A DNA stretch of 32,000 bases. Source: Leptolyngbya boryana PCC 6306. Lineage in GTDB: Bacteria; Cyanobacteriota; Cyanobacteriia; Leptolyngbyales; Leptolyngbyaceae. The translations under genes were made by a program, and so were the position numbers. The stretch is taken from positions 6,009,018-6,041,017 of the forward strand of contig NZ_KB731324.1 in assembly GCF_000353285.1 (NCBI RefSeq), given 5' to 3'. Below the pieces are notes generated by a model that worked only from the letters and a program-made list of their open reading frames with translations, was not told where the DNA came from and searched no databases. Shown here one piece after another: positions 10,303 through 32,000 of this stretch; within the stretch, counting starts at the first letter, position 1; each line of letters opens with the position of its first letter.

Positions 10303-10303
10303 A

Positions 10304-10635: not shown

Positions 10636-10724
10636 GCTCGATCGTCGAACTACACCGAAGTATAAAGTGATTCTTAGACTCTGCGGGGTATACTCACTCA
10701 GCAATCTAATCACAAAGCACATCC

Positions 10725-11621: not shown

Positions 11622-11665
11622 AGAATAGGGGGTAGAAAATAGGAAGAGCGACTAAGGAAACACTT

Positions 11666-11690
11666 CCCTACTCCCCACTCCCCACTTCAC
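11666..11690 (+). repeat. C-tract copy (inverted orientation) of the GGGGAGT heptamer repeat
   Basis: The sequence ccctactccccactccccacttcac has reverse complement gtgaagtggggagtggggagtaggg, which matches gtggggagtggggg at 10309-10322. Confidence 0.75.
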
Positions 11691-11824
11691 CTATCAGGCT
11701 CGAAACAAAGTCGAACCAAACACTTCGGCTATTTCTATCGCCAAAGGACGGTACTCCGATCTCTCCAGATTCCATCCCTTCTCTACAATAGCGATAGCAC
11801 GATCGACATAGAAGGGGGAACACG

Positions 11825-14449
11825 ATGCAGCCGACCAACTCAGAAAAATTTACCGAAAAAGTCTGGGAAGCAATCATCCGAACTCAAGAGATTGTAAAAC
11901 AGGCGCAACAACAGCAGATCGAGACGGAGCATCTGATGAAAGCTCTGCTCGAACAAGATGGCTTAGCAATCAGCATCTTCAACAAACTCGCTGTCCCCGT
12001 CGATCGAGTGCGCGATCGTACCGATGATTTTATTCGTCGTCAGCCCAAAGTTTCTGGAAGTGGAACCTCGGTATACTGGGGACGCAGCGCCGATGCCTTG
12101 CTCGATCGGGCTGAAGAATATCGCAAGCAATTCGAGGACAGCTTTATCTCGATCGAACATCTTTTGCTAGGTTACGCCCAAGATAGTCGGTTCGGAAAAG
12201 CATTGCTGTCAGAATTTAGAATCGATGAAGCAAAATTAAGAAACGCGATCGAACAAGTTCGGGGAAATCAAAAAGTGACCGACCAGACTCCTGAAAACAA
12301 ATACGAATCCCTAGAAAAATACGGGCGTGATTTGACCCAGTATGCTCGCGAAGGGAAACTCGATCCGGTCATTGGACGAGACGACGAAATCCGACGCACG
12401 ATCCAGATCTTGTCCCGTCGCACCAAAAACAATCCGGTTTTGATCGGTGAACCCGGTGTTGGTAAAACCGCGATCGCTGAAGGTCTTGCTCAGCGAATTC
12501 TCAGTGGAGATGTCCCGCAATCCCTAAAAGACCGCAAACTGATCGCCCTAGATATGGGCGCACTGATTGCAGGTGCAAAATACCGAGGCGAATTTGAGGA
12601 ACGCTTGAAAGCCGTTCTCAAAGAAGTCACCGATTCTCGTGGCAACATCATTCTGTTTATCGACGAAATTCATACCGTGGTTGGTGCAGGTGCAACTCAA
12701 GGCGCGATGGATGCCGGAAACCTGCTGAAGCCGATGCTGGCACGAGGCGAGTTGCGCTGTATCGGTGCAACGACCTTAGACGAATATCGCAAATACATCG
12801 AGAAAGATGCAGCCTTAGAGCGGCGCTTCCAGCAAGTCTTCGTCGATCAGCCGAGTGTTGAAGACACGATCTCGATTCTGCGCGGACTAAAAGAGCGGTA
12901 CGAAGTTCACCACGGGGTGAAAATCTCCGACTCTGCGTTAGTTGCTGCTGCAACCCTTTCGACTCGATATATCAGCGATCGCTTCCTTCCCGACAAAGCG
13001 ATCGACCTCGTAGACGAAGCGGCTGCCAAACTCAAAATGGAGATTACGTCGAAGCCAGAAGAACTCGATGAAGTCGATCGTAAAGTTCTCCAGCTTGAGA
13101 TGGAACGACTTTCGTTGCAGAAAGAGAACGATGCAGGATCTCGCGATCGCTTAGAACGATTAGAGCGTGAACTTGCCGATTTCAAAGAAGATCAGTCCAA
13201 GTTAAATGCTCAATGGCAAGCCGAGAAAAGCGTCATCACAGATCTTCAGAAGCTCAAAGAAGAAATCGATCGAGTCAACCTTGAAATCCAGCAAGCCGAA
13301 CGCGATTACGATCTCAACCGCGCGGCTGAACTGAAGTACGGCAAGCTCAACGAACTCAATCGTAAAGTTGAAGAAACGGAATCCCAACTGTCTCAAACTC
13401 AGAAATCGGGAGCGACGCTGCTCCGTGAAGAAGTTCTTGAATCAGACATTGCTGAAATCATTTCCAAATGGACGGGTATCCCCGTTAGTAAACTCGTTGA
13501 ATCTGAAATGCAAAAGCTCTTGCAGCTTGACGATGTTTTACATCAGCGCGTGATTGGACAAGACGAAGCGGTGACGGCAGTTTCCGATGCAATTCAGCGA
13601 TCGAGAGCCGGACTTTCTGATCCAAATCGTCCAACGGCTAGCTTCATTTTCTTAGGACCAACAGGAGTTGGTAAAACTGAGCTTGCAAAAGCACTCGCTG
13701 CTTTCTTATTCGACACCGAAGAAGCAATGGTTCGGATCGACATGTCCGAATACATGGAGAAGCATTCTGTTTCTCGCTTAATTGGTGCGCCTCCTGGATA
13801 TGTCGGCTATGAAGAAGGCGGACAACTCACGGAAGCGGTTCGTCGTCGTCCTTACTCGGTGATTCTGTTTGATGAAATCGAGAAAGCCCATCCCGATGTC
13901 TTCAATGTGATGCTGCAAATTCTCGATGATGGTCGCGTGACAGACTCCCAAGGTCGCACCGTAGACTTCAAGAACACAATTATCATCATGACCTCGAACA
14001 TCGGTTCGCAGTACATCTTTGAATACGGTGGTGATGACGATCGCTATGAGGAAATGCGATCGAGAGTGATGGAAGCAATGCGATCGAACTTCCGTCCTGA
14101 GTTCTTGAACCGGATTGATGAGATCATCATCTTCCACAGTCTGCAAAAGGCTCAACTCCGCGAGATCGTCAAGATTCAAACGCATCGCTTAGAAAGTCGC
14201 TTAGCAGAGCGGAAGATGTCCCTGAAGCTCTCCGATGCAGCACTCGATTTCTTAGCAGAAGTAGGCTTTGATCCAGTTTACGGAGCACGTCCACTGAAGC
14301 GGGCAATTCAGCGGGAGTTGGAAACAACGATCGCCAAAGAAATTCTACGCAGCAACTTCACTGAAGGCGATACTATCTTCGTCGATGTCGGTGAAACGGA
14401 GCGCTTAGAATTCAAACGCTTGCCTTCTGAAGTGTTGACCACGCAATAG
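11825..14449 (+). CDS. clpB: ATP-dependent chaperone ClpB (Hsp100 disaggregase)
   Basis: 874 aa. It has a Clp N-domain and two AAA+ modules ([34 protein letters not shown]). A long coiled-coil M-domain lies between them, and the protein has the ClpB C-terminal signature. Confidence 0.95.
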
Positions 14450-14450
14450 G

Positions 14451-14490
14451 CAATGAAGGGGTGAGACTTCTCTCACCCCTTCATTGCTTT
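14451..14490 (+). terminator. intrinsic-terminator-like hairpin after clpB
   Basis: A perfect 16-bp stem (caatgaaggggtgaga 14451-14466 pairing with tctcaccccttcattg 14471-14486) with a 4-nt loop cttc, followed by cttt. It starts 2 nt after the clpB TAG. Confidence 0.75.
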
Positions 14491-14540
14491 AGAAGCAAAT
14501 GAAATTCAAATTGAGGCATCGTTGACCGAAAAAAGCCATC

Positions 14541-14783
14541 ATGCAAGCAGCCGTCCGAATCAGAGCCAAAGTGCTACCTGGAAACAGAATTGAGATTGAA
14601 GTTCCTGACGGTTCTGTTGGAGCAGAGGTTGAAGTCATGGTTGTCTTTCCTGAAACGATTCCAATTGGATTTGATCAGCGCGATCGTAGCTATCACCTCT
14701 TTTTGATCTTCAGACGTGAGAGACGAACTCACGAGATTTGTGGCTTTTATTCTAAGTGTTTTGGTAAAAACCAATGCTTCTAG
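14541..14783 (+). CDS. small hypothetical ORF with an antitoxin-like N-terminus, possibly degenerate
   Basis: The N-terminal part MQAAVRIRAKVLPGNRIEIEVPDGSVGAEVEVMVVFPE resembles the short swapped-hairpin / DUF104-like antitoxin-type proteins common in cyanobacteria. The C-terminal half is Cys/Phe/Arg-rich and unconvincing. There is no partner toxin ORF nearby. Confidence 0.25.
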   Translation: MQAAVRIRAKVLPGNRIEIEVPDGSVGAEVEVMVVFPETIPIGFDQRDRSYHLFLIFRRERRTHEICGFYSKCFGKNQCF

Positions 14784-14820
14784 AATGCCCGTCTGCCCAA
14801 ATCAAACCCTGAAGAATCAA

Positions 14821-15684
14821 CTAGAGAATCGGCGATCGCTGTTCCAAATCGAACTTATACCCGTGTGGCAAAATATGCAACTTTGCACCACACAGCGCTA
14901 AAGCTTCGTCATGCAACAGTTCAGCCATATTGTTGTGCGTGACCGTTGATTCATCCACGATCGTTACTGCACCTTCACCAATGACTTCTAAGATTTTGCC
15001 ATTGATTGAGATCGCAGTATTCTCATCAATCCCAAAGCCTAAGCTAGCAGGCTGCTGTGCTAAAGCAGAAAGTAATCGTCCCAGTCGTCCGCGTTGTGCG
15101 AAATGCTGATCAATAATCACATTCGGCAAAAAGCCCATGCCCCGATCCATGCGAGCGACCTCGCGTCGAGGATTCGTTTCGCCTTCACCCTCGACAATCA
15201 TCATATCGGGCATCATCGCTGCACCTGCACTCGTTCCAGCAATTACAATGCCTTCAGAAAAGCGCCTGTGCAAAACAGCTTCTAGCTCTGTATCTTTCAA
15301 GCATTCTGTAATTCGAGCTTGGTTTCCCCCCGTGAAGAACACCCCGGTCGATTGAGAGATAGCTTCGATCGCTCTTGGATCACTCGCATCCTCACGCTTG
15401 CCCGTATCGACAACCTGAACGTCTTTTGCGCCTAATCGCTCAAAAATGTCAATGTACTGCGCGCCAACTTCACCTGGTAAGCCCGTCGCAACCGTCATCA
15501 CAACAATATGCGCATCAAGTCCACCTGATCGCCGCACAAATTCCCGCAGAATCTTACACTCTCCCTCTTTATCCTCGGCTCCACCAATAATGACAAGTTC
15601 ACCATGCGTCTCAGGTAAAGCGACATTCTCTTGAGGGTCATCCTGAGCAGGCGTTTCAATCTGACTTACCATAACCATCTCCAA
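14821..15684 (-). CDS. cphB: cyanophycinase (peptidase S51)
   Basis: 287 aa. Motifs seen: LVIIGGAEDKEG, FFTGGNQ, the catalytic-serine motif IAGTSAGAAMM, and IIDQHFAQRGRLGRL. Confidence 0.9.
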   Translation of the reverse strand: MEMVMVSQIETPAQDDPQENVALPETHGELVIIGGAEDKEGECKILREFVRRSGGLDAHIVVMTVATGLPGEVGAQYIDIFERLGAKDVQVVDTGKREDASDPRAIEAISQSTGVFFTGGNQARITECLKDTELEAVLHRRFSEGIVIAGTSAGAAMMPDMMIVEGEGETNPRREVARMDRGMGFLPNVIIDQHFAQRGRLGRLLSALAQQPASLGFGIDENTAISINGKILEVIGEGAVTIVDESTVTHNNMAELLHDEALALCGAKLHILPHGYKFDLEQRSPIL

Positions 15685-15760
15685 TATAAGAGTTTGATGT
15701 TACTGAACCATATTTGGTTATCACTCCATCACAACCGAACGGTAGATTTCGATACAAAAA

Positions 15761-16030
15761 TTAGAGCGCCCGCGAATCTTTCGATCGTCGTCGATAGCTT
15801 TCAAGTAGCAACATCCAACCCAGACGAAACTGATTAAAGCTCTTGACTTCAGGCTGAATTAAATCAGTCAAAAACGCCTTTGCTCTTTCTAAAGGAAGAT
15901 GGCGAGGTTTGCCTTTGTAAACAATCTGGTACTCGTTGTCATATTCACCATCGCCATAGCCGGAAATTAAGTGCAGGTGAAATGCTTCTTCCGCTAAGGT
16001 ATGAACTTCTTCACGTAAATTAGTATCCAT
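15761..16030 (-). CDS. hypothetical 89-aa protein between cphB and cphA2
   Basis: Its composition is protein-like (MDTNLREEVHTLAEEAFHLHLISGYGDGEYDNEYQIVYKGKPRHLPLERAKAF...). It is on the same strand as cphB and 76 nt upstream of it. I recognise no family. Confidence 0.45.
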   Translation of the reverse strand: MDTNLREEVHTLAEEAFHLHLISGYGDGEYDNEYQIVYKGKPRHLPLERAKAFLTDLIQPEVKSFNQFRLGWMLLLESYRRRSKDSRAL

Positions 16031-16174
16031 AATGTCAGTCTTTACTTGATTTAGTCTGAGTTGTAATACAGGTCAGAATCTTTTGACACCTAGCTTGAGT
16101 TTTACTCTTTGGGATAGACGCAGCTTACGCTTCGATTTCTGTAGAGTCTCAAGGTACAAATATCTTGTGAAATT

Positions 16175-18082
16175 ATGGTTGTCGATCGCATCTCCGAACT
16201 CAACCGCGTCAATGCGAGAAAAACTGATGCGTTTGATATTTTTAATATTCGTGCTTACGTTGGTGCAAATCCCTATTTGTCGATGGCTGCCATCGTGTTC
16301 GATTTTACGCTGACGAAAAATCAGAATGCGCTGCCCGTCGAGCAGTATGCCAAGATTGTGAGCGATCGCTATCCTGATTTCCGAGAAAAAACGTTTACTT
16401 CTCATGCTGATCTGTTTGCCCAGACCGTCGCGAAAGTGAGTGCACTGGAGATGGATCTGCATTTGCAGCACTGGAGTGTCACGGCTTATCCACAGTTCGA
16501 TCGTATTGCAGTCGAAACGCTACATGCTCGAACCAGTCGAGAACTGATCTTTTCAGTTTGGGATTGGTTTGAAGCGATGACTCAAGGACAAGACTTTGCG
16601 ATCGCAGATCACATCGAAGTGTTGCAGGCGCAGTTTCGGCGATCGGTGTATGGTGGCCCTACGGTTTATGCTTTACTCAAATCGGCTAGAGAGCTAGGCA
16701 TTCCCACTTTCTATCTGTGGGATGAAGGGTTGATGCAGTATGGCTACGGGCGAAAGCAAGTCAGAGGCATTGCCACAACTTTCGAGCGGGATAGTCATCT
16801 CGATTCAGACTTCACGACACGCAAAGATGACTGCAAAGCGTTCTTGCAAACCTTAGGATTTCCTGTGCCAAAAGGTCGGATTGTTTCGAGCTTCAATGAA
16901 GCACTCAACGCAGTTGATCGCATCGGTTATCCAGTCGCGGTAAAGCCTGTGGTCGGACATAAAGGCATCGGCGTGACAGCAAATATCCAATCCGATGAAG
17001 ATCTAGAAGCCGCATTCGATCGAGCAGTAGAAGCTGTTGAACCAGAACAATCGATTCGGATCATTATTGAACAGAGTATTGAAGGCGATGATTTTCGATT
17101 GTTGTGTGTGGATGGAAAGTTCATTGCTGCGACGAAGCGCGAACCTGCTTCGGTAGTCGGAGATGGAATGTCTACGATCGAGGAATTGATCAACCGAGCG
17201 AATCGCTCTCCTGAACGCAGCGATACCCCAACTTCGCCGATGGGTAAGATTCATGTCGATGACGCGATGCACCGCTATCTAGCTGAGCAGGATTTATCAA
17301 TTGAGACAGTACTAGAGCGCGATCGCACAATCTTCTTGCGCAAAGTCGCGAATCTCTCTGCTGGTGGACTGAGCATTGATGCAACACCGAACATTCATCC
17401 CGATAACATTGTGCTAGCTCAGGATGTCGCTCAACATTTTCGCTTGACTTGCCTCGGCATTGATATCATGACCCGCGATCTCAGCCGCTCTTGGAAAGAA
17501 GGAAACTTTGCCATCATTGAGATCAATGCGGCTCCTGGAATTTTTATGCACTTAAAACCTGCGATCGGCAATCGAGTCGATGTGACTTCTCATATTTTGA
17601 AAACCTTCTTTCACTCAAGTGCAGAAGCTCGAATTCCGATCATCACCTTCAATCGCGTTACTCTTTCAGATTTGCAAACTGCGATCGCTTACATTCTTCG
17701 ACATTATCCACATTGGACAATTGGAGCCGCTTGCCAAGATGGTATTTTGATCAATCACTCTGAAAAGCCACTGCATCCAGACTACAACACCAACATTCAG
17801 AATCTACTGAGAAATCCTAAGTTAGATTTACTGATTACTGAATATCCTGAATCCATTCTCGATCGCTCTGGCATGTTTTATGAAAAGAGCAATCTTGTTG
17901 TGCTGAATGATCCAACAGAGATCGAAATGATGTTGGCAAAAAATATTTTTGAAGATGCAAAAGTTGTGATTAAGCAAGGCAGTAAAGTTTCAACTCAATA
18001 TCAAGGATTGATTGAACAATATGCTTTAAGTGAATCGTTCGATCAGGTTTACCTAGAAGCAATCGCGGCAATGATCTTGTAA
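16175..18082 (+). CDS. cphA2: truncated cyanophycin synthetase, CphA2-type (N domain + ATP-grasp G domain, vestigial M domain)
   Basis: 635 aa, compared with about 900 for CphA1. CphA-type N domain and ATP-grasp blocks are present (GYPVAVKPVVGHKGIGV, IIEQSIEGDDFRLLCVDGKF, RKVANLSAGG, AIIEINAAPG). Where CphA1 has the Mur-ligase P-loop (IPIVAVTGTNGKTT) this protein reads IPIITFNRVTLSDL, and only about 170 aa follow. Confidence 0.8.
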   Translation: MVVDRISELNRVNARKTDAFDIFNIRAYVGANPYLSMAAIVFDFTLTKNQNALPVEQYAKIVSDRYPDFREKTFTSHADLFAQTVAKVSALEMDLHLQHWSVTAYPQFDRIAVETLHARTSRELIFSVWDWFEAMTQGQDFAIADHIEVLQAQFRRSVYGGPTVYALLKSARELGIPTFYLWDEGLMQYGYGRKQVRGIATTFERDSHLDSDFTTRKDDCKAFLQTLGFPVPKGRIVSSFNEALNAVDRIGYPVAVKPVVGHKGIGVTANIQSDEDLEAAFDRAVEAVEPEQSIRIIIEQSIEGDDFRLLCVDGKFIAATKREPASVVGDGMSTIEELINRANRSPERSDTPTSPMGKIHVDDAMHRYLAEQDLSIETVLERDRTIFLRKVANLSAGGLSIDATPNIHPDNIVLAQDVAQHFRLTCLGIDIMTRDLSRSWKEGNFAIIEINAAPGIFMHLKPAIGNRVDVTSHILKTFFHSSAEARIPIITFNRVTLSDLQTAIAYILRHYPHWTIGAACQDGILINHSEKPLHPDYNTNIQNLLRNPKLDLLITEYPESILDRSGMFYEKSNLVVLNDPTEIEMMLAKNIFEDAKVVIKQGSKVSTQYQGLIEQYALSESFDQVYLEAIAAMIL

Positions 18083-18321
18083 AACTGATGCCTTTGAAGA
18101 GACAGATATCGGTTCTCTAGAGAATTCTTCTGAATTAAGTAATTTTACTGGGTGATTCTTGTGGAATTTATGTGTTAATTGGCACGTAAAAGAAGCAAGC
18201 TGGTAAGTTAGTGTGCTTACTAAATTTACTGGTTTGCATGAGCGACGTTGCCCCGTTTAACTAGTGTGTCCCTACTTTTAGAGGGTCACAACTGGTTATA
18301 TTACTTCTCAGGAATTACCCA

Positions 18322-19143
18322 ATGTCAGACTTTGAGCAAATCTCCCTGTTGACGATCGACAACCAATCCCTTTCTCTTGGCACGGTACTTCAGTACTTTC
18401 AACTCTCTGGAAAACTGATGCCTTGGATTAGAGACATTCTTGAACAGCATATTGTTTTTCAAACGATTCAATCTCGCAACGACTTGAATATTCTTGAATC
18501 TGAGGTAGATCAAGCAGTCATTAATTTCCGAATCAACAATCAATTGTCTGATGCAGATGTCTTTGAGCAATGGTTGATCAATCAAGGCATCGACTTCGCA
18601 GTATTGAGAAGTCGGTTTGTGATTGGGCTGAAAGTGGACAAGCTGAAAGCATTGATCGCAGAGCCAAATTTGCAGGCATTGTTTGATCAGCAGAAGCTCG
18701 CATTGGATCAGGTCGAACTTTATTACATGATCGCTTCGAGCCAAGAGATTGCTGAAGAAATTCAGCGCAAAATCGAACAAGAAGGTGGTTTTGAGAAAGT
18801 TGCGAGAGAGTATGCTTTAGCAGAAGAGCCGCAAGTGAGCTTGGTTAGACGGGCTTTTTCGCTGGCTCAGTTGCCTGAAGACCTCAGAACCGCGATCGCA
18901 CAAAAGCAAGCTGGCGATACCGTGGGCGCAATCGAAGTTGAGCAGCGCTGGTGTGTGTTCCGCATCGAAGCAGTCGTTCCTGCTGTCTTGGAAGGTGAAT
19001 TAAAGCTTGCGCTACAAAATCAGCTGTTTGAACAATGGGTTGCTGATCAGATCCAGCAGTTATCTGTTCGATTGGGAGGATCTCAACTGGCTGAGGCTTC
19101 TGCCGTTGAGACAGAAGAACGGGAACTGGTAGCGACAATGTAG
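18322..19143 (+). CDS. PpiC/parvulin-like (SurA/NifM-like) protein, probably catalytically degenerate
   Basis: 273 aa. It has a helical N-terminal chaperone-like part. The C-terminal region VELYYMIASSQEIAEEIQRKIEQEGGFEKVAREYA...GDTVGAIEVEQRWCVFRIE follows the parvulin fold pattern, but Tyr and Val/Phe sit where the two conserved His residues are expected. Confidence 0.55.
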   Translation: MSDFEQISLLTIDNQSLSLGTVLQYFQLSGKLMPWIRDILEQHIVFQTIQSRNDLNILESEVDQAVINFRINNQLSDADVFEQWLINQGIDFAVLRSRFVIGLKVDKLKALIAEPNLQALFDQQKLALDQVELYYMIASSQEIAEEIQRKIEQEGGFEKVAREYALAEEPQVSLVRRAFSLAQLPEDLRTAIAQKQAGDTVGAIEVEQRWCVFRIEAVVPAVLEGELKLALQNQLFEQWVADQIQQLSVRLGGSQLAEASAVETEERELVATM

Positions 19144-19363
19144 TTGATCAGGTGTGTAGGGGTGAATAGCTCTGCCAATGCCTCAGACTTTTGCCCCTCA
19201 ATCTCGCATACTGAGAAACTTTGAAAAGCACAGAATACCTTCATAACATAGGCATTCTGGTTGAGAACAGCCCAATCCAATTCATGTTAATTTCCTGAGC
19301 GCGATCGCTTCTAGATATCGCGCGGTTTTGCTTTTCATCCAAACTTAATCCCGGTAACGACTT

Positions 19364-22300
19364 ATGCAATCTGATGCTCTACTTCGTAATGCTTTACTAG
19401 GTTCTACAACGGCAATTGCCCCTGCGCCGCTTGAGATTAACTTAAGTCCAGCACTAAACGATATCTCTCGATCGAGTTCGATTGCATTTGTCGATCGTGG
19501 AATTCAAGGATATGAAAAGCTCCTCGCAAACGCTGCTTCAGGAACAGAAATCTATGTTCTAGATCCCATCAAAGATGCAGTTTCGCAAATCACCGACATT
19601 CTACTAGAGCGCACGAGCATCTCGGCAGTTCACATTCTTTCGCATGGAAGCAGCGGCGGACTGACATTAGGACAGAACTGGCTCGACAGCAACGCTTTGG
19701 AACAGTATGCGGATCAGTTCCGAAGTTGGTCAAAGGCACTCACTCAAGACGCAGATATCTTGCTCTACGGATGTGAGGTTGCACAGGGCGAAATTGGACA
19801 GGCATTTGTCAATATTTTGAGCGAATTGACGCAGGCAGATGTTGCAGCTTCAACGAATCTGACTGGAAGCGCAGCGCTAGGTGGAGACTGGACTTTAGAA
19901 TATCAACACGGCAAGATCGAAGCCGGATTAGTGTTTCAATCTGCTGCACTCGCTGACTATCAATCTGTTCTAGGCATTAACTTTACGGGCAGTGCTATCA
20001 CGAATACTGGCATCAATACGGTAGGTGCGATCGCGCGGATCACAGGCAACGCGATTTTAGACGTGATTGGGGATATCACGATCGATGCAAGCGGGATTAC
20101 TGGAGATGGAGTAGGCGGGCTTGATAACCTCACGCTAAAAGCAACAGGGAACGTTGAGATTCGCGGTTTAGTAGGAACAGGTGGGCTAAATAATCTCAAC
20201 ATCGAAGCGAGGACTATTACTGTATCGAATAGCGTTCGGATTGAGGCGCTGGCAGACATTGCATTTGCGGCTAAAGATTTGCGGATCAGTCTAGAGAGCT
20301 TGTTGCCTGGAGTACTGCCTGTCTCTGCTGACATTAAGTCGTCTGGAATTACACTAGGCAGCAATGTTATTGTACAAGGTCAAAATATTAGCTTCAGTGC
20401 AGAAGCGAAAGATATCAATCCAACCGAGGGACTGAATGAATTTATAGACGGTATCATTGTTCAGCCGTTAATCGATTTTTATGCCGGACAGGTTCCGTCC
20501 TTGCCGGTTAGTGTGATGGTTCGAGAGTCTAGAGCAAATATTACGATCGGCAATGGCTCTCAAATCCTTGCGACAGAAGATACTAGCATTGTTGCGACTG
20601 CGGCAGCAGATGCCAGTGCAGAAGCAAAAGGCGAATTTGTTAGCGTCGGTTGGAGTAATGCGACTGCTTCTGCCACAATCGACATTGGACAATCCGTCGT
20701 GATCACAGCTGGAGCAGATGTTACTCTTGCCTCAGATGCCTCGACAACGGCAAGTATGACGACTGAGACGAAGCCTCCTGAACAAGGACAATCTTCAGTT
20801 CCTGGCGTTGCTGTATCGCTCGCAATTGCGAACGCAAATTTGACAGCAAAGACAACGATTTCACAAGGAGCAACCATTACCGCAGGGAGAAATGCAAACA
20901 TTCTTGCAACTGGGAAGGTTGAACGAGAAGCAGGTTCTGAAGCCGAAGCTAGCCAGGGTGGAAAAGCGGGCGTATCGGTTGGACTAGGGTTCACAAAATC
21001 AGATGTTCAAGCGATCGTCAATGGAACCGTGACCTCGGGTGCAACGGCTGAAAAGATCTTTAATCCATCTGTTGCGGTGAACAACAATGCGGACACTATT
21101 ACCGTCGCAAATCATGGCTTCAAGCAGGGGCAAGCTGTTGTCTATAGTAAGGGCAGTGGTTCGGACATTGATGGATTAGAAGATGGCAATACTTATTTTG
21201 TGATTGTTGTGAATAACAACACCATTAAGCTTGCCGAGTCTGCTGCTGCTGCTGAAGAAAACACCGCGATCGATGTCTCTAATTCGGGTGTTCAGGGTAC
21301 CGATCATGTCCTCAAAGATCCAGGCATTCGGATTGTCGCTCAACTGGAAAGTGAAGATAAAGCTTCCGCAACCTCAGGTGTGAGTGACGAAGAAGAAGAA
21401 GACACGGCGAATGGGCAAAGCGGCGATGGAGCACAAACCCAAGTGAATCCCGCAAGTCTTATCCAGGGAATGACTGCAAATAATGTCTCTCAAAACGCGG
21501 GCGCAGGCGGAAGTGGGTCTAAAACGAACTTTAGTGCAGCAGGTGCATTTGCGTTCTCTAGCGTTCGTAACACTGTAGCTGCGACCGTGGGACTTACAGG
21601 CGTACTCAAATCTGAAGCAGACATTGCGGTGCAAGCCACGATCGAGAATAAAAATCAAACGCAAGCAGAGGCGAGTGTCGAACCGAATGAAGGCGCACAA
21701 GCTTCAACAGCAAGTGCGGCAGTCATTGTTGGCTTGTATTCTAATAGCGCGATCGCAAAAGTTGAGGGAACAACTGATGCTCGAAAAGCAACGACGATCA
21801 GTTCTGAAGTCATTTATCCATTCCTCTCTACGGTTGAAGAGAATTTTGATATCCTCGGAAAGCTTAAAGAAGATGGAATTGATGGTCTAGTTGAACACTT
21901 TGATGATGGAACTCTGGGCTTCAAGAGTTCATTGTTCAACTCTTGGGCGAAGAGTACTGCAAAAGCCGAGAAATTGGGAATTGCGGGTTCGGTGAACTTC
22001 CAGCAGTTTACGAGTAATGCACAAGCGATCGTCGGCTCCAATGCCAAGATAAATCAAACTGCTGCATTCCAGACGAATGAACAGACGGTTTCGGTTGAAG
22101 CCAAAACAGAACTGCATCAAATTAACATTACGGGTGTCTTCGATTTTGAGTTGACGACCGAAAAGCTTCAAGAATTGAAAGATTCCAAAGATCGTCTAGC
22201 AGACCTGAATCCGGCTGGCTCACAGTCTGGTAAGGGTGGCATGGGTGGATCATTGTTCCTCTTGTTTAACAATAGCAATACGATCGCGAAAGTTGAATCT

Positions 22301-25300
22301 GGAGCGCTGATTCGGACGGGAGCAGATGGAGATCTCACGGTCAAGGCAGAGTCTAAAAACATTGATATTAACGTTGCACAATCGGGTGCAAGCGGTGGAC
22401 AGTTTGGAGTCGGTGGGACTTTTGTTTACACCAATCAGACAAGCAATACGATCGCGCAAGTTGATAGCGGTGTGAAGTTCCGAGGTGGAGCACTCAACAT
22501 TACAGCCGCAGACGAAACGACGCGCGTGAATGCGGTCGGGGGTGTTGCGAAAGGCGGCAACGTTGGGATTGGTCTATCTGTGTCGCTCAATAACATGGAT
22601 CGAACCGTTTCTGCCTTTATTGGTCAAGTCGCAACGGCGGCACCCATTACTGGCACAGACATTGATGCAGGCGATATTACGATTGGGGCGAAGGGAACAG
22701 GTGGCTTGTGGTCATTCTCCCTAGCAGCTGCGATCGCATCTAAAAATCCCCAAGACCAAGCGTCTCAAGATCCTCCCGAACAACCGACTGATGTTGCTGA
22801 TTCTCCAGGCAGTTCGGATGATCCCTTAGACGGGGTTACGTTGCCGACACTCTTTGGAGAAATGACTCCACAAGCAGATGCAGCCAATCCAGACAACAGT
22901 GCTGCAAATACGTCGAATGACAAGGGCAATCAAGGAAAATCTGGAATTGGAATTTCTGGGGACGTTTCGATCAATACAGCCACCGATCGAGTGTCTGCCT
23001 TTATCAATGATGCAGGCGTAATCAACGGTGGAAAAGTTGCTCTAGAAGCAACGAATGATACTGTGATGCGAGTTGCTTCTGGTTCAGCCGCGTTTGCTAA
23101 ATCTGCTGACGCCAATGCAACATCGGTAGGAATTGCAGGATCTGTTAGCATTAACACGTTAACAGGCACGACAAATGCTTTTATTACGGGCACTGCTTCA
23201 GGGGGGCAGAAACTCGCGCTCACAGCGGATCAACTCTCCTTAAAAGCGATTCGCAGCGGAGATCTGTTTGCACTGTCGGCGAGTGGTTCTGGTGCGCCTG
23301 GTAAGAATGGCATTGCGATCGCTGGCTCTGTTTCCGTCAACCGCATTACAAATACAACTGAAGCTTATTTAAATGGTGTACAAGCGACCATTGCTGGCAG
23401 CGTTTCGTTGGATGCGAAAGATAACTCTCGAATTTTTGCGCTCGGGGGTGCAGTAGCAGGTCTGGTTGGACGGGCTGGATTTGGCGCAGGCGTGGGTGTG
23501 AATATTATTAAGAATACGGTTAAAGCGAATAGCAGTAACACCACGCTCGATCTTGGTACAAGTCTAACTTTGTCTGCTCTGAATAGCTCTGAGATTCAAG
23601 CAATTGCAGCATCACTTGGGATTTCTCCACAACAAAATGGAATCGGTGCAGCGGGAACCGTTTCTGTAAATAACATTACCCTAACCACAGAAGCTTCTGT
23701 TACTAAAACGAACCGAACTATCAACGCGACTTTACCCACAGGCGTGATCTCACTATCTGCGAAAAACACTGCAACGATTGAATCTTTAGCAGGCGCGGTT
23801 GGAGGCGGTCAAACTGTCGGCTTTGGCGCAGCCGTTGCCTACAATGGCATCACAAACAACACTCAAGTTTTTGTCAGCGAGTCTACACTAGCGACGACAG
23901 CAGGAGCAGAGATCACAGCAGAATCTTCAGGCACAATCAAATCGCTAACGCTAGGCGTTGGAGGTGGAAAAGAACTCGGTCTAGGTGGCTCTGTTGCGAT
24001 CAATATGATCCGGGGTGGAACTCGTGCTTTCATTGACCAAAACACAGTTCTACTTGCAGGCGGTCAAATTAACCTGGGGGCGAAAGATACGAGTACGATC
24101 GAAGGCTTGTCAGGCGGAATTGCAGGCTCTCAAACAGCCGCGATCGGAGCAGCAATCTCAGTTAATGATATTTCAACGACGACGACAAGCTACATTGAGA
24201 AATCTACGGTTACGTCACAAAATGCAGGGGTTCGTTCTGTTGCTGAAGCAAGCGCAACGATTAAAACGATTACAGTCGGAGGCGCGGGTGCTCAAAGCGT
24301 TGCGATTGGGGGATCTGTTTCTGTTAACTTGATTCGTAAAACAGTAGAGAGCCATATTGCAGATAGTGCGACAGTGACTGCGGCTCAAGATGTGAAAGTC
24401 GAAGCGATCGCATCTTCAACTTTAGAGGCGAATGGGGGCGCTTTAGCAGGTGCAGGTAAAGTGAGTGTTGCAGGCTCACTGGCCGTGAATGATCTAGAAA
24501 ATAGAACGATCGCACGGATTTCAGGCTCTACAGTTACAAGTTCTCAAGGCAATGTGATTGTCAGTGCAGATTCTCGTGACACAGTGCGAACGATTTCTGT
24601 CGGAGGCTCTGGTGCAGGTAAGGTTGGTGTTGCGGGTTCTGCCTCCGTCAGCATGATGGGGAATACCACAACAGCAGAGATCGTCGGTGGAACCGTCAGC
24701 GCAGATGACAACGTACTCGTACTGGCAAACAGCAAAAATGCGATCGATTTTTATGGAGGGACAATTTCGGTTGGAGGCGTAGCAGGGGTTGGCGGTCTTG
24801 CGAATGTTAATACGATCGCAAATACAACCCAAGCTGCAATTCGCCAAGGTGCAAGTGTTACCGCAAAGGGCAACGCGACAAGTTCGATTTCAAAAGCGGA
24901 TGGTACTGGAACCAGTGAACTCACACGCGGCGTTGCAGTCATCGCGACCAGCGAAGAGCAAGTTGATGTCGTATCCGTCAATCTTGCAGGAGGTGGCAAA
25001 GCAGGTGTAGCAGCAACAGCATCTGTCACCGTTTTAGAAAGTCAGACGACAGCATCGATTGATGGTGCGTCCGTTAACGCAAATAACACTGGGGCAAATG
25101 CGGGTCAAACCGTCAAGGTTAAGGCATTCAATCATTCTGATGTTGACATTAAAGCAGGTTCGATCGCAGGGAGTGGCGCAGTCGGTGTTGGTGCAACCGT
25201 TGATGTAACTGTGATTGGAAATACGACTCGTGCCTTGATTAACAATGCTCCGATTGTGAATGCTCAAGCTGGCATTGATGTCACGTCCTTCACTCGCGAA

Positions 25301-28300
25301 AAATTTGGGTCTGTTGTTGCAAGTGGTGCAGGTGGATTTTTTGCAGGGGTAGCAGGTTCACTTCTAGTCAGTGATATTCGCAGTCAGAATGAAGCATTCA
25401 TTGCAGGTTCGACCATTAATACCTTTGGTAATCTGCGAGTGATTGCTGATGATCGGGTCGAAGCAACTGGAGCCTCAGGAGCAGCAGGACTTGCGGGTAA
25501 GGGAGTTGGGTTTGGTGCGACGATTTCCGTCATTACGATCGCCAATTCTACAACTGCGAAAATCACAAGCTCTACGACGAATGCAAGTGGACTGACTGAA
25601 GTTAAGGCAAATTCGGTAGAAAGCGTGACAACAGGCGGCGCATCTTTAGGGGCAGCACTGTTTGGAGGAGTGGCTGGAACAGTATTGGTTTCCTCGCTCA
25701 CAACTGATACGATCGCGACGATCGATGGAACGAGCCGAGTCAACCAAGATTTGGCGTACCGCACTGGAACACAAGATGTCCAAGTGAAAGCTGAAAATAA
25801 TTCAACATTGACCGGGGGTGTTGCAGCGCTGGGGGTAGGAGCAGTAGGGGCTGGAATTTCGGTCATGGTATCGGGGATCTGGAATACAACTTCAGCATCG
25901 ATTGGAGACGGCGCGACGGTCAGTGCAGGACGCAATATTGTTGTAGATGCCGACTCTAGCAAAACAGTAACAACTGGTGTAATGGCATTTGCAGGAGGGT
26001 TGGCTGGTGTCGCGGGTGCTGTCTCTGTCGTCAATATCGGCAGCGGCATGTCTGGCGATGGCACGAGTTCTGTCGCCTCGACTCAATCTGAAACGGATGA
26101 ACAATTGGATAAGAGCCAAATCGATAGCGGTTTGGGTAATTCCAGCTTTGCGACTCGTGCGAAGACCAAGGCTGATAGCAAGACTGTCGGGATGAGAACG
26201 ACAGGATTTGGGGCGACTGCTCCAGTGCTGAACGGAACCAGTGCTTTTGTGGGCGTGAATGCGATCCTCAACGCTGGTGCAGATGTCAATGTGACTGCGA
26301 CTGAGACGATTACGCTAAATCAGGGCATCGGTAACATTACAGTCGGCGCAGTCGGTGTTGGAGGATCGGTTGCGATCGCAAATATCAACGGCAATACTCA
26401 AGCATTCTTGGCAGAAGGCTCGATCGTCAATGCAGGTAACAATATCAATGTGACTGCGAACTTTACGAATACCCTAAATAGCATTGCAGGTGCAGGGCAG
26501 GGTGGACTGGTGGGCTTAGGTGCTCAAGTTGTAATTGTCAACGATGATAGTCGTCAACTTGCAGCAATTCGCAACGGAGCCAGAATTAATCAAGCCAATA
26601 ATGTCTTGGTCACTGCTCTTGCGAATCGAACAAATACAAGCACAATGGTTAACCTGCAAGTTGGAGGCTATGTTGCTGGAGCCGCGATCGCTCGATTAAC
26701 AGGAAAGGGTTCAACTCAAGCTCTCGTTGACAATGATGCTCAAATTGGTCAGGTTGCTGGCAGCACTGTCGGCAGTCTGTCTGTCTCAGCCGATGCGAAT
26801 CTCACTGCAACTGCAACCACTCGATCGCTCTCAGTTGGAATTGGTTCTGGGAGTGCGAACGTTGCGATCGCTGACTTTTCTCCGACCATTTCTGCAAGCA
26901 TTGGTGCAGGAGCAGACATTAAGACCTTACGCAATATTGATGTTGTGAGCAGTGGTACTGCAAATCTCGCAACCGATGTTGCTGGAGCAAATGCCGGAGT
27001 TGTTGCAGTCGGACTATCGAATGCAAGATCTCAAGTGAATGCGACCTTAGCAACAAGCGTTGGAAGTGGGGCTAGGCTTGATGCCGGAACAAATATTCTC
27101 CTTGCAAGCCGATTTAACCGAGATGCAAGTGGTCAACTCATCTCTGGAAAGCAAGTAAAAGCTTCTGCTTCTGCTTCTGCAGGTGCATTAGGTGTCGTAG
27201 TTGGCGCGAAGGCTGAAGCTAAGATGTCAACGAATATTGCTGCTTCTGTCGATAACGACGCTAGATTAGACGCTGTTAATCATGTATTGATTCAGTCTCA
27301 GTCGAGTAATGTCGTCGATGCTTATGCAAGTGGTAAGCAGCTTGGGGTTGCAGCAGGTGGAGCAGTGATTACTGAGGCGGAAATCACGAACACAAATCGG
27401 GCTTCAATCGGCGACCGTGTAAAAATTACTGCAGGTCAGGATGTCACAATTTCCGCACAGTCTGATAATCATGTTGTGCGATCGGAAGCAGAAGGTGCAT
27501 CTCTAGGTGTTGCGACTGGTGCAAGTACTTCTGCTAATGCAACTGTTACAGATAATACCACTGCATCGATTGGGAGCAGTAGCGAAATCATTGCGGGAGA
27601 AACAATCAAAGTCGAATCTTTGATGAGTAATCAAGTTCAAAGCAAGGGCACGTTTGAGACGGGTGCTGCTGTTTCTGCGAATCTCACACAAGCTCGAAGC
27701 AGGCTAACTTCCCGCACACTGACTGAAATTGGTACAAATGCGTTGTTGAGAGGCAAGACCGTTCAACTTCATGCAAAAGGAACAAAACTCAATGTTGATG
27801 CAGATGCTACTTCACAAACGGCTGCGTTGAATTCTACGACAAATGCACAATCCTTTGTCGATGTTGATACGAATACAAAGGTTGTCAACAAAACAAGCGC
27901 AACGTTAGACGGGGAGAATCGTGTAGAAATTCTGTCTCGCTTAGATGGAGTTGAACTCAATACTAGTAAATCGAAGTCAAAAATTGCGGGTTTTACTGGA
28001 TCGATCAAGGCGAATTCGCACAATGACTTTAAACTGACGGCAGATATTGATGTTCAATCTCAGTCTGTCATCATTGGAACTGATGTCCTGATTGAAGCGT
28101 ATTCTCCCCAAGACAAAGCAAGTATCTATGCTCAAGAGCTAGATGCAGTAGCCAATACTGTCGTCAAATTCATTACAGAGACGATTAGAACTGTTTCTAA
28201 AGTCTTTAGCTGGATTCCTTTCTTTGGCAGACTTGTCAAAGAAGTTGTGAGGTGGGTCACAAGAACGATCGAAGAAATTACAAACAGTACTGTCGATGCG

Positions 28301-31300
28301 ACTCGTAGTGGAAACTTCAGTAGTACCAACTTCATCAACCTCAATGGAGATATTTACCAGGGAACTCCTGCCAAGGCTGAACTAACTGTGAATGCTGATT
28401 TGAGTATGCTAGCAAAAGGCGGCATCGTAGGTCGAGTAGTTAATGACGAAGTCGTTGTTGATGACTTAGTAGCAAGACCGCCCGGCAAGATCATAATCAA
28501 TTCTGATTCTGGTAAACTGGCGGGCAATTTCACTGTCCACAAGAACAGTGTTATAGAGTCAGTAAACATTGTTAATAATTCAACTAAAAATGTTCGGATC
28601 AATCGAATTCGCATGATTAATCCAGCAATGGCAGAGCCAGATTTGAAGATTTCGGCTGAAGACAATACTGCTACAATTCGCACAGTCACTGATATCAATG
28701 GCGTTCCAAATATTGATATTCGCAACAATACAAACTCGAATGTCATTTTTGCAGGTCAGATTGAAAATTCAGTTGGTTCAATGACTGTGTTCAACCAGGG
28801 CGGCAATATTATTGCCGGAAATCCGATTCAGCTAGAAGTGGCAAGCCTTAATCTGAATGCGGTGCAAGGACAAATTGGGACACTGAGTAATCGACTTGAC
28901 TTGCGATTGTTTGATACTCAGACTGAGACGATTGAGTCGATCAATGGTGCGCTTTCCGTCAATGCGGGGCAAGGTGTCTACCTCAACACGAAGCTAATTC
29001 GCGAAGTTGCATCTACAACTGCTTTGACAGCTTTGGATGGATTGGATTTCAATACTGTAACTGCAGGTAATGATATCGATATCACCATTCAAACGGCTGA
29101 AACGAACCAGTTGATTACAACGACAGAGATAATCACAACGGAAACGACAAATGAAGTGATTCCGATAGAGACAACGATATTAGAGCGTAAAGTAGTTGCA
29201 GGTGTTTACAACCTGAAAGATATCGCTTCAACTCAAGGAAATGTCAAGATTACTTCAGTCCAAGGCGACTTGAGTATTGGAAAAATTCGTGCTGCCACTG
29301 GAACAGTTAATCTGGTTACATCTGGTTCTATTACTGACGCGAATGCAGTAGGTGCAGACATTACTGCTCAAAATGCAATTCTTCAAGCAACTTCTGGAAT
29401 TGGTTCTGCCAGCAATGCGATCGATACAGCCGTTTCTCGACTCGAAGCGAATGGTTCAGGGGGAATGTGGATTAACAACACTGGGAATTTATCGATCGGC
29501 GGAATTAGCCCGATGATTGGTTTAACCATCACCGGTGATCTGTCTCTAACTAATGCAGGATCGGTAACGGTCAGTGAGAATGTGACGGCTTCTGGGAATG
29601 TTCAAGTCACGACAACAGATACACAAAATCAAGGCGAAGACATTGAAGTTGTCGCCAATACGAAAGTCGAAAGTACAGGTGCTAGTATTTCTCTACTTGC
29701 AGGCGACAACTTCACATTGAATCCAACGGGTACGATCGCGGCTGCAACTCAAATTCTAATTAAAGGCGACCAGGGCAACGCTGATAGTGTGGGAAGCACG
29801 ATCGACATTCGCGGAACCCTCCAAGCTCCAGTTGTCGAAATTACTGGAGATAGCAACAACGATCGCGTCAATCTCACCAATGTTTCGACGGGTTCACCTG
29901 TAACCATTAGAACCTTAGATGGTGATGATACGATCAATATCGGCAGTAATTCCACGCCTACATCAAATACGAATGGCACTCTAAATCGGATCAGTGCGAA
30001 TTTGGCGATCGACGGAGGAACCGGAAACGATCAGTTCAAAGCAGACGACTCAGGTGATACAACCGCAAACACTGGAACTCTCACGAATACTCAATTGCTC
30101 GGATTGGGTATGACAGGCACGATCAACTACGCAGGAGTCGAAGCGATCGAGGTCGCACTCGGTTCTGGGGCTGATACGTTTACTGTTGCTAGCACGATCG
30201 CAGGAACAACTACGGTCAATGCGAATGCAGGCGCGGATACTGTCAATGTTCAATCGATCTCAGGCGCGACTACAGTCAATGCAGGTGCAGACAACGACAC
30301 AATTAATGTCGGAAACGCGAGCAATACTGTTAACGATATTGGCGCGACTCTAACGGTTCAAGGGGATGCGGGTACTGATACTCTCAACGTGATTGACTCG
30401 GGTGATACTACTGCAAACACAGGCAATTTAACCAGCACTCGCGTCTCGGGCTTAGGAATGGCAGGTGCAATCGACTACGACACTGTTGAAGCTTTAGACA
30501 TTACTCTCGGTTCAGGTGGAGACACCTTTACGGTTCAGAGTACACACACAGGTTCTACGACTCTAAATAGTGCTGCGGGTGCTGATACGATCGCAGTTCA
30601 ATCCAATACAGGCGCAACGACCGTTAATGCAGGCGCAAACGATGATAACGTAACAGTTTCGGTGATCACTCCAGGTGGAACATTAGTTGTAAATGGTGAA
30701 GCAGGCAATGATGTGGTCAATGCAACTGCATCCACACGCGGTATTGTTCTCAATGGTGGAGATGGCGACGATACGCTACAAGGCGGATCAGGCAACGATT
30801 TGATCGGCGGCGGATCAGGGAACGATCGTATTGATGGCAATGCCGGAAATGATGAAATCTATGGCGATTCGACTTTCCCGGTTCAAGCAACAGATGCGGC
30901 TTATAACAGCTTTACCTTTGATGCGAATGTGATGACGGCTCCTGCTGGATCGCGTCCAAGTGCTACACAGCAAACTTCTCAAGGGAATGACACAATTTCC
31001 GGTGGAATTGGAAGCGATACCGTTTATGGGGAAGGTGGCGATGACAACATCGTTGGAGGTAGTTTTACTGCGAATGTCGCAGATGGAACGGACTATCTGT
31101 TTGGTGGAGCCGGAAATGATGTGATTGCTGGCGATAATGCCACGATTGATGTCAATCGCTCGATCGCGGTTTTCAATGACAATAACGGCGCGGCGGATTA
31201 CATCTTTGGGGATACTGGAACGCTCACATTTGCTCCGACAGGAGAAGTGACTCGCGCCGCGAATGCTTCGGTTGCAGGAGATGGCAACGATACGATCTCC

Positions 31301-32000
31301 GGTGGAATTGGTAATGATGCTCTCTTTGGTGGAGCCGGCAATGATGTGATTTCTGGAAACTTGGGAGACGATCGCTTAATCGGTGATCAAGGTGTGATTG
31401 ACTTTGTGAATAGTGCAGTCACCAAGATTGAAACGACAGAAGCAAATGTTGGCGGAACCGACACGCTAAATGGTGATGAAGGCAACGACATTGCGATCGG
31501 GGGATTTGGAAATGACACGATTTCTGGAAATGCTGGAGATGATTTCTTAATTGGAGACAACGGACGCGCGCAATTTTCGGCAGGCATCTTAACGAGAATT
31601 GAATCGATTGATCCAGGACTCGGAGGAAATGATGCGATCGCTGGAAATGAAGGCAACGACATCGCGATCGGCGGATTTGGAGACGATACGATTTTTGGAG
31701 AAGTCGGGCGGGATGTCTTACTCGGTGACAATGGCGTTGTAGTTCGAGCCGATGGCACGATTGAAGCCAATGATATTTACTCGACTGATCCCACTTTCGG
31801 TGGTAAGGACACCATCACTGGAGGATTGGACAATGATGTGATCATCGGGGGGTCGGGTGGCAATGATGCACTGGGGCTAGGCGGTGACATCCTGGCAGGA
31901 AACGAAGGCGATGACTGGATCATCGGCGACAATGCTTATATCACTCGCGATAGTAACGATCAAGTCGAGCAAGTCGTAACCTCTTTCTCATCGAATGGCG
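19364..32000 (+). CDS. giant secreted exoprotein/adhesin (5' part only): DUF4347 domain, long beta-helical repeat region, RTX calcium-binding repeats
   Basis: The ATG at 19364 is preceded by an in-frame TAA (19355-19357). The frame (position 2 mod 3) was hand-translated at 19364-19970, 20582-20700, 21062-21330, 23282-23400, 25022-25080, 28133-28300, 30761-30840 and 31022-31080, and it was coding and stop-free at each. No + strand ORF in this frame appears in the track, which is consistent with an ORF that has no stop inside the window (at least 4,212 codons). All listed ORFs between 19960 and 31770 are short and in other frames or on the other strand. Confidence 0.9.
   Translation, partial: [4212 protein letters not shown]
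19481..19918 (+). other. DUF4347-like N-terminal domain of the giant protein
   Basis: Residues ~40-185 read [15 protein letters not shown]...[17 protein letters not shown]....[18 protein letters not shown]...[39 protein letters not shown]...GDWTLEY. This matches the DUF4347 pattern found at the N-terminus of very large bacterial repeat proteins. Confidence 0.7.
20630..27500 (+). repeat. periodic (~55-60 aa, ~165-180 nt) beta-helix-type repeats within the giant ORF
   Basis: A recurring motif G-[SA]-[VL]-[SA]-[VI]-N-x-[IL]-x-N-x-T-x-A-x-I. Examples are [16 protein letters not shown] (~23325), [16 protein letters not shown] (~23140), [16 protein letters not shown] (~24310), [16 protein letters not shown] (~24800) and [16 protein letters not shown] (~26370). 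The array is interrupted at about 21000-21950 and 22740-22940. The boundaries are approximate. Confidence 0.6.
30044..30694 (+). repeat. two tandem ~117-aa modules preceding the RTX block
   Basis: Module 1 reads [51 protein letters not shown]...[12 protein letters not shown]. Module 2, from ~30395, reads [50 protein letters not shown]...[11 protein letters not shown]. Confidence 0.7.
30695..32000 (+). repeat. RTX / hemolysin-type calcium-binding nonapeptide repeats (GGxGxDxxx)
   Basis: Repeats seen: [138 protein letters not shown] and more. The block continues past the window end. Confidence 0.9.

Follow-up and report, generated by a model that had tools for sequence, protein, structure and literature searches.

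The 32,000-nucleotide (nt) stretch of Leptolyngbya boryana PCC 6306 analysed here (contig NZ_KB731324.1, positions 6,009,018 to 6,041,017; hereafter the window) carries, on its plus strand from position 19364 onward, most of a gene for a 6,064-residue protein that joins an N-terminal DUF4347 domain to a long body of beta repeats and a C-terminal series of RTX repeats. On balance, we lean towards reading this protein as a 615-kDa, very acidic, calcium-binding fibre of the cell surface, of the giant RTX-adhesin kind, for which a stopper or release role of the head and roles of two partner proteins are proposed. The gene itself has already been called in public assemblies, and its product belongs to the known DUF4347, RTX (by repeat content) and NF012206 classes. 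Cyanobacterial genomes commonly encode giant RTX proteins, hardly any of them with a known role, and one more would be ordinary. We found no published description of three features seen here, namely a peptidase-like head combined with a single cysteine, a beta rod of 53-residue repeats, and conserved partners of the peptidyl-prolyl isomerase (PPIase) and porin types. The literature search likewise returned no study of the giant protein, nor any that dealt with RTX proteins of L. boryana.

Extent and integrity of the giant gene

Computational translation of window positions 19364-31999 on the plus strand gave 4,212 codons and no stop, in agreement with the initial annotation, which had described a frame open from 19364 to the end of the window. 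The ATG at 19364 is the earliest possible start, since the preceding in-frame stop ends at 19357. The frame covers 12,637 of the 32,000 bases, or 39.5%, close to the 40% first given for it, and it is absent from the mechanical list of open reading frames (ORFs) because ORFs that run off the source sequence are not listed. The expectation that the gene continues past the window was borne out by contig extension. The locus L068, which was reached via a downstream gene and lies on contig JACJRN010000008.1 (GCA_014697285.1; 239,696 bp), overlaps window positions 27638-32000 at 100% identity. The stop codon found in it corresponds to window position 37558, 5,558 nt past the window edge. Window and L068 joined yield an 18,195-nt gene with one stop, which is terminal; the window holds its 5' part, 4,212 of 6,064 codons (19364-32000, plus strand). 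The gene call on the same assembly starts at the same ATG and gives a product of 6,064 aa, and the product length in the Logan assembly DRR469515 is likewise 6,064 aa among the matches listed. The full product has a mass of 615 kDa and an isoelectric point (pI) of 4.1; it contains a single cysteine, and its 706 acidic residues compare with 316 basic ones.

The frame is a real and complete gene cut by the window edge, not an artefact and not a pseudogene. Misassembly is common in repetitive giant genes, which would speak for an assembly artefact or a decaying pseudogene. This explanation is nevertheless extremely improbable, as the same 6,064-aa product occurs in the NCBI and Logan assemblies, 18.2 kb pass without a stop, and Tandem Repeats Finder detected no DNA-level repeat in the giant gene, so that tandem repeats that could collapse are absent. 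Furthermore, the orthologues, which were reached through neighbour genes and not by a full-length protein search, are 78-79% identical, collinear and intact over up to 3,800 aa. The GC content at third codon positions (GC3) is 0.39 in the giant gene (19364-31999) and 0.49 in the ClpB gene of the window (11825-14449), with an equal overall GC content of 0.48. The low GC3 may stem from the Gly/Ala/Thr/Asn-rich composition or from low expression.

Domain architecture

The DUF4347 domain proposed for the N-terminus was confirmed at aa 40-203 (19481-19972; all coordinates of the giant gene refer to the plus strand), where the Pfam model PF14252 matches over its whole length (1-164) with an E value of 4e-59 and 199.4 bits (cut-off 24.6). 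A link region follows at aa 204-480, for which no family match was obtained (Pfam remains blank across aa 204-720).

The body of the protein (aa 481-2763; 20804-27652) is built from divergent units of about 53 aa, at least 29 of them in tandem, which are predicted to form an all-beta rod. A hidden Markov model (HMM) derived from the protein itself identified 29 copies of the repeat, spanning about 6.9 kb and about 2,300 aa, with a consensus of approximately VGxGGSVSVNxIxNTTxAxI...V.V.A...........GG.AG. The NCBIfam model NF012206 (LktA_tand_53, tandem repeat-containing filamentous protein) matched 19 stretches with an E value of 1e-96 and 316.8 bits (cut-off 50). The AlphaFold model of seven repeats is all-beta, with a predicted local distance difference test (pLDDT) score of 84.6 and a predicted template modelling score of 0.83, and each modelled repeat contributes two strands of about 18 residues and one short strand. 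The rod is predicted with good confidence, yet it has no solved structural analogue: the Foldseek search of the repeat model against the PDB gave no significant match (best E value 0.13), and the nearest shapes were the beta-solenoids of CsgA, FapC, SufD, ice-binding proteins and tailspikes. The initial annotation had described about 7 kb of beta-helix-type repeats. The length of the body agrees with this description, and a stacked beta rod does so in a loose sense, but the family does not, since no Pfam beta-helix model matches the repeat body and NF012206 does instead. Matches to the Pfam models Big, Cadherin and VCBS were likewise absent from the giant protein.

The repeats are followed by a non-repetitive Asn/Ile/Thr-rich section (aa 2780-3445; 27701-29698), delimited by composition, self-comparison and HMMER. 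Over aa 2780-3480 the Gly content falls from 12-16% to 5-8%, Asn rises up to 14%, Ile to 12% and Thr to 16%, and there are almost no internal paralogues; both the shift in composition and the non-repetitiveness bear out the compositionally different section that had been noticed at first. Neither Pfam nor a PDB sequence search matched aa 2780-3480. By exhaustive HMMER search, the first 470 residues of this query are common to 28 representative clusters (E <= 1e-30), mostly giants of 2,000-6,000 aa in which the match is similarly placed, and its last 200 residues belong to a module that is repeated in many large proteins.

Self-BLAST of the whole protein returned the identity match alone, and chunked BLAST then revealed three modules of 116 aa at aa 3446-3793 (29699-30742). 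The modules at aa 3562-3677 and 3678-3793 are 59% identical, and the third copy, upstream of them, is weaker. The tandem modules of the initial annotation are present, though with a period of 116 instead of 117 aa and as three rather than two copies.

The RTX nonapeptide region starts at aa 3798 and runs to the window edge (30755-32000) and beyond. HemolysinCabind matches the window part with an E value of 1.8e-28 and the remaining 1,852 aa with an E value of 2.6e-95 in 13 stretches. Ten strict GGxGxD motifs lie in the window part, all within aa 3551-4103, in support of the RTX repeats first reported there, and the full protein contains 54 RTX-like G-x-x-G-x-D motifs between aa 3551 and 5984. 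The RTX blocks comprise about 2,200 aa and are interrupted by an FG-GAP propeller, for which Pfam reports five stretches beyond the window; in an orthologue from a Logan assembly (L065, 79% identical) the same stretch reads as about seven blades of about 57 aa each. The last RTX-like motif stands 80 aa before the C-terminus, and the tail itself is non-RTX. This tail of about 70-80 aa is conserved in five lineages with the pattern NPSxxD...LSPxLQxY...Q..N.L.L.G, and it is consistent with a C-terminal secretion signal. At the other end, the maximum hydropathy over 12 residues in the first 35 aa is 1.26, and there is no Sec-type N-terminus. The protein-intrinsic marks of a type I substrate are all present: no Sec N-terminus, a pI of 4.1, a single cysteine, 54 RTX-like motifs and a conserved tail.

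The DUF4347 head

The sole cysteine among the 6,064 residues is Cys137, and the sequenced portions of the orthologues contain from none to at most two. Cys137 ends the motif ILLYGC137 (codons Tyr135-Gly136-Cys137, 19766-19774), and 43 residues before it lies the putative catalytic histidine of the motif VHILSH94G (codons His94-Gly95, 19643-19648). In 120 DUF4347 homologues, His94-Gly95 is 99% conserved and Cys137 100%, and the Tyr-Gly-Cys motif as a whole reaches 99-100%. Hydrophobic strands modelled at residues 86-92 and 126-135 directly precede the two motifs. This Cys/His signature was missed in the earlier reading of the window, as were the two conserved partner genes described below. AlphaFold models the DUF4347 core with a pLDDT above 90 and predicts an alpha/beta fold, putatively like that of clan-CD peptidases; with this head model, Foldseek matched legumain, caspase-1, -3 and -7 and the CHAT protease Csx29 with probabilities of 0.95-1.0.

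A further match is Tce1 (PA0256), a DUF4347 protein of Pseudomonas aeruginosa (PMC8262886). It is described as a putative cysteine protease, whose His186 and Cys240 its authors matched to the dyad in the cysteine protease domain (CPD) of TcdB (PMC13323088). The head model superimposes on Tce1 (PDB 9qpe_G, deposited as 'DUF4347 domain-containing protein') with a template modelling (TM) score of 0.52 normalised on Tce1, a root-mean-square deviation of 4.0 Å and 20% identity. The cyanobacterial DUF4347 profile aligns the HG and YGC motifs with His186 and Cys240 of Tce1, though weakly (E value 0.098), and a PDB sequence search with a single DUF4347 sequence gave no match.

Among the candidates scored, 267 DUF4347 relatives were found at E <= 1e-5. 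The domain starts at a median residue of 16, and a strongly hydrophobic N-terminus occurs in 3 of the 120 homologues; DUF4347 therefore appears, from sequence, to form the extreme N-terminus of proteins that have no Sec signal. These proteins carry passengers of extracellular type, namely FG-GAP, Calx-beta, lectin, GH18 and RTX. DUF4347 is scarcely mentioned in the literature, and none of the mentions found concerns cyanobacteria.

The combination of RTX repeats with a CPD-like cysteine-peptidase fold is that of the MARTX toxins, which raises the alternative of a released toxin or lysin of MARTX or leukotoxin type, in which the clan-CD head would process itself after delivery. The relatives Tce1 and Tce2, which are type VI secretion system (T6SS) effectors, and the match of the repeat body to LktA_tand_53 fit this alternative as well. 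We consider it very unlikely nonetheless. The head occupies the very N-terminus instead of a place between effector domains, and effector-like catalytic domains were not found across the 6,064 aa. Lys and Arg are scarce in the DUF4347 domain, hence an activation pocket of the inositol hexakisphosphate (InsP6) type is improbable. Furthermore, the organism is a free-living phototroph, and the FG-GAP propeller and long rod are typical of adhesins.

Conserved partner genes

Two genes flank the giant gene. Upstream, at 18322-19143 on the plus strand, a PPIase-like protein of 273 aa without a signal peptide is encoded, which matches Pfam Rotamase_2 (E value 2e-7), weakly TIGR04500 (PpiC-related maturation protein) and, in the PDB, the PpiC-type PPIase 3gpk (E value 0.003). 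Downstream, a gene for a protein of 388 aa starts 79 nt past the giant stop. This protein combines a signal peptide and a coiled coil with a barrel of the Legionella_OMP family (PF05150) and a C-terminal Phe, and its homologues are named 'Lpg1974 family pore-forming outer membrane protein' by NCBI. The Legionella members of this barrel family are porins tethered to peptidoglycan (PMC11841132). Promoter and terminator scans of both intergenic regions flanking the giant gene gave scores at or below the shuffle expectation and were uninformative.

Nine lineages were seen in which a barrel homologue directly adjoins a DUF4347-RTX giant, 4,645-6,064 aa in length: L. boryana (L068), Leptolyngbya UWPOB_LEPTO1 (L069), a Logan assembly (L065), Leptolyngbya Prado105 (L001), Phormidesmis (L002), Pantanalinema (L063), Thainema (L070), Leptolyngbya NIES-3755 (L062) and an ENA metagenome (L066). 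The PPIase-like homologue lies directly upstream of the giant homologue in NIES-3755 (L062) and in L066/L067, with the genes arranged as barrel-PPIase-giant. The accession numbers of the PPIase and the outer-membrane protein differ by 2 in L. boryana CZ1, GGD and FACHB-1624, implying the order PPIase-giant-barrel. In the remaining loci, the sequence reached did not extend to the giant gene's 5' end, on the PPIase side. Collectively, the PPIase-like, giant and barrel genes seem to form a three-gene module conserved across Leptolyngbya, Phormidesmis, Pantanalinema and Thainema, which suggests that the partners are dedicated to anchoring or assembly in a way not covered by the textbook model of adhesins exported by a type I secretion system (T1SS).

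A more distant Lpg1974-like barrel (30% identity) was also seen at locus L072 (10001-11239, plus strand), opposite the region L072:1-6035 on the minus strand. It lies about 4 kb from a gene for an ATP-binding cassette (ABC) transporter of 751 aa, two fragments of HlyD/AprE-type adaptors and a 1,268-aa ORF, with transposases between, and proteins with a two-partner secretion (TPS) domain and CHAT proteins are encoded nearby. This is the sole locus seen in which the barrel family occurs near genes of T1SS type.

The pairing with the barrel gene allows a second route to the cell surface, in which the Lpg1974-type barrel itself would be the export or anchoring pore, in a two-partner-like manner and without a TolC-type T1SS. 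The barrel gene follows the giant gene at the short distance given above with no terminator-like site between them, and it stands beside the giant in all nine lineages and also beside a giant with the same rod and a different head, described below. The repeat body matches NF012206 (LktA_tand_53), a short name that we take to refer to Fusobacterium LktA, presumably a leukotoxin and substrate of two-partner secretion. A precedent is found in P. aeruginosa, where the adhesin CdrA is anchored by the syntenic outer-membrane transporter CdrB (PMC13090378). The giant protein, however, has no signal peptide and cannot for that reason reach the periplasm by Sec; no Pfam match to a TPS or Haemagg_act domain was found in it; the barrel is of a porin-type family that has no POTRA domains; and C-terminal RTX repeats with a conserved tail are the classic T1SS arrangement. 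We therefore regard export through the barrel as unlikely.

Conservation of the gene across Leptolyngbya-like genera would also suit a structural protein of the surface layer (S-layer) or of gliding motility, of the oscillin, SwmB or S-layer type, covering the filament. Other cyanobacteria have calcium-binding RTX-like glycoproteins that build surface fibrils or S-layers. Known S-layer proteins are, however, far smaller and highly expressed, and the GC3 of the giant gene, 0.39 against 0.49 for ClpB, does not suggest high expression, which makes a coat of this kind improbable.

Proposed mechanism and points against it

In the preferred reading of the giant protein as an adhesin-like fibre, the chain would be exported C-terminus first by a type I system (ABC transporter, membrane fusion protein and TolC) encoded elsewhere in the genome, and the RTX blocks would fold outside the cell upon binding external Ca2+. 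The body of 53-aa repeats would then form a stiff beta rod, which projects the propeller and the unique section as binding modules. More speculatively, the DUF4347 head may exit last as a folded clan-CD cysteine-peptidase-like domain (His94/Cys137) and act as a stopper that tethers the fibre in the envelope, possibly also as its own release switch in cis. In LapA-type adhesins, a retention module stalls during export and cleavage by LapG releases the adhesin (PMC13090378); one chain might here merge the roles of the LapA retention module and the LapG protease. The signal-less PPIase-like protein might be a cytoplasmic holdase or foldase that acts on the chain before export, and the Lpg1974-type barrel may be the dock or anchor of the fibre.

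A stronger form of this proposal is that DUF4347, the PPIase-like protein and the barrel constitute an undescribed display module, in which the barrel docks the fibre and the head plugs the channel and cuts itself. We think it doubtful that this full scheme is correct. If true, it would be a self-releasing module, a one-chain equivalent of LapA/LapG in cyanobacteria, and it would give a first defined role to DUF4347, the head of hundreds of signal-less, extracellular-looking proteins. With the invariant His/Cys pair, the idea of a protease or of self-processing is open to direct testing in culture, and L. boryana is amenable to genetic manipulation.

Several observations weigh against the proposed export route and against the roles given to the head and the barrel. 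First, no gene for an ABC transporter, HlyD-type adaptor or TolC was found over the 19 kb upstream of the giant gene (window positions 1-19363), nor over 10 kb on its downstream side; the upstream scan covered the window ORFs of at least 150 aa and four shorter ones. The initial annotation had taken the RTX repeats to imply type I secretion and had placed any T1SS genes beyond the window. The intrinsic substrate features of the protein favour the former, but the latter did not hold for the adjoining DNA, as the 10 kb downstream contain the barrel gene, a kinase/regulator hybrid and housekeeping genes. T1SS genes that are unlinked to their substrates are usual in cyanobacteria. Second, RTX motifs occur in just 51 of the 120 DUF4347 homologues, which is fewer than half, and DUF4347 is therefore not tied to type I secretion.

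The fold and function of the head are subject to similar caution. Its Foldseek scores are modest, with E values from 1e-4 to 1e-2 and TM scores of 0.30-0.42, and unrelated folds (Rossmann-like, SDR, GDSL and flavodoxin) score like clan CD against the head model. Because other alpha/beta folds score similarly, the assignment of the head rests mainly on the motif geometry and the link to Tce1. Tce1 itself gave no activity-dependent phenotype in yeast (PMC13323088). DUF4347 domains are not known to cleave any substrate, and the peptidase role considered here is putative.

Finally, the barrel does not seem always to accompany a DUF4347 head. In a JGI metagenome (L071), a 5,091-aa giant with a different N-terminus also adjoins an Lpg1974-like barrel. 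The giant ORF (1-9186, minus strand) and the barrel gene (10001-10984, plus strand) are divergent there, and the barrel is 33% identical to the Leptolyngbya one. This giant has a planctomycete-style N-terminus and no Pfam matches, and no DUF4347 occurs in the 3,061 residues visible; its match to the repeat body of the window protein is 32% identity over 690 aa (E value 7e-62). The barrel pairing thus extends to a non-cyanobacterial giant that has the same rod, and since it is kept with a different head, the barrel may serve the rod rather than the head.

Genomic neighbourhood

Upstream of the PPIase-like gene, the window encodes a GT21 glycosyltransferase, a transglutaminase-core protein, SecG, an M10-like peptidase, an NB-ARC/TPR protein, ClpB, a cyanophycinase and a short cyanophycin-synthetase-like ligase. 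The 10 kb downstream of the giant gene hold, besides the barrel gene, genes for a histidine kinase/response regulator hybrid, pyruvate kinase, a glycogen-debranching enzyme, the beta subunit of glycyl-tRNA synthetase and phosphofructokinase.

The transglutaminase-core protein (2347-4017, minus strand; 556 aa) belongs to the LapG-protease superfamily, lies 15 kb from the giant gene and has no NCBIfam match. The SecG ORF (6259-6567, plus strand) overlaps by 49 nt an ORF at 6519-7202 on the same strand, which has a weak matrixin (M10) match and whose TTG start was probably called too early. A STAND-type protein of 723 aa with an NB-ARC domain and multiple TPRs is encoded at 8131-10302 on the plus strand; its GTG start may be too far downstream, as the NB-ARC match begins at residue 4. 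A gene call of 52 aa at 10477-10635 on the plus strand, made in locus L060, has a PCP_red (protochlorophyllide reductase C-terminal-like) Pfam match and stands just upstream of a gene for a 298-aa protein with a weak match to a copper-uptake-associated domain. The cyanophycinase gene (14821-15684, minus strand; TIGR02069, E value 1e-99) is arranged head to head with the ligase gene (16175-18082, plus strand). The ligase is a cyanophycin-synthetase-like ATP-grasp protein of 635 aa, which matches the first two thirds of the full-length cyanophycin-synthetase models only and scores far under their cut-offs.

Comparison with known systems

Among the systems compared, the giant protein is akin to different ones in different parts. 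The head shares its Pfam family and a matching fold with Tce1, and the HG and YGC motifs of the two align at the proposed dyad. Tce1, however, is a stand-alone T6SS effector of 310 aa carried inside Hcp3, whereas DUF4347 here heads a 6,064-aa RTX protein. MARTX and TcdA/TcdB offer another parallel, being RTX exoproteins or toxins with a CPD (clan CD, family C80), as the giant protein combines RTX with a clan-CD-like His/Cys domain. In those toxins the CPD is internal, is activated by InsP6 and releases effector domains; here the domain is N-terminal and has few basic residues, and C80 structures are not among the Foldseek matches listed for the DUF4347 head. Assignment as a MARTX toxin was rejected on the N-terminal position of the head and because no effector domains were found.

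The repeat body resembles that of the NF012206 proteins, with 19 stretches matching the 53-residue model at the E value of 1e-96 given above. Fusobacterium LktA has a signal peptide and a TPS-type N-terminus, from which the giant protein differs in having neither and in adding RTX repeats. Assignment as a TpsA exoprotein was rejected for want of a signal peptide and a TPS domain and because the partner barrel belongs to the Legionella_OMP family and not to Omp85. The arrangement of the genes recalls the type Vb pair CdrA/CdrB, in that a large adhesin gene adjoins the gene of an outer-membrane barrel. CdrB is an Omp85/TpsB transporter, though, whereas the barrel here is of the Legionella MOMP/Lpg1974 kind and possesses a coiled coil and a C-terminal Phe in addition to its signal peptide.

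The giant RTX adhesins of the LapA and MpIBP type share the largest set of features with the giant protein. Both kinds lie in the same size range, have no Sec signal, and are acidic and poor in Cys. In both, a long extender of repeats is combined with domains of binding type close to the distal end and with C-terminal RTX blocks plus a tail, and the N-terminal domain is folded and would be the last to leave the cell. There are also differences. The extender here consists of 53-aa beta repeats with strands of about 18 residues, theirs of immunoglobulin (Ig)-like domains. The N-terminal domain is a peptidase-like DUF4347 domain instead of the LapA retention fold. And no LapG site ([T/A/P]AAG) occurs in the first 600 aa, nor do LapG-, LapD- or T1SS-type genes adjoin the giant gene, which is accompanied by the barrel and PPIase-like genes instead. 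Assignment as a LapA-type adhesin was rejected on these grounds: no LapG site, no Ig-like extender, a different head and no adjacent Lap or T1SS genes. In conclusion, judged by its sequence, the giant protein probably works most like the giant RTX adhesins, yet appears to fall outside the LapA subfamily.

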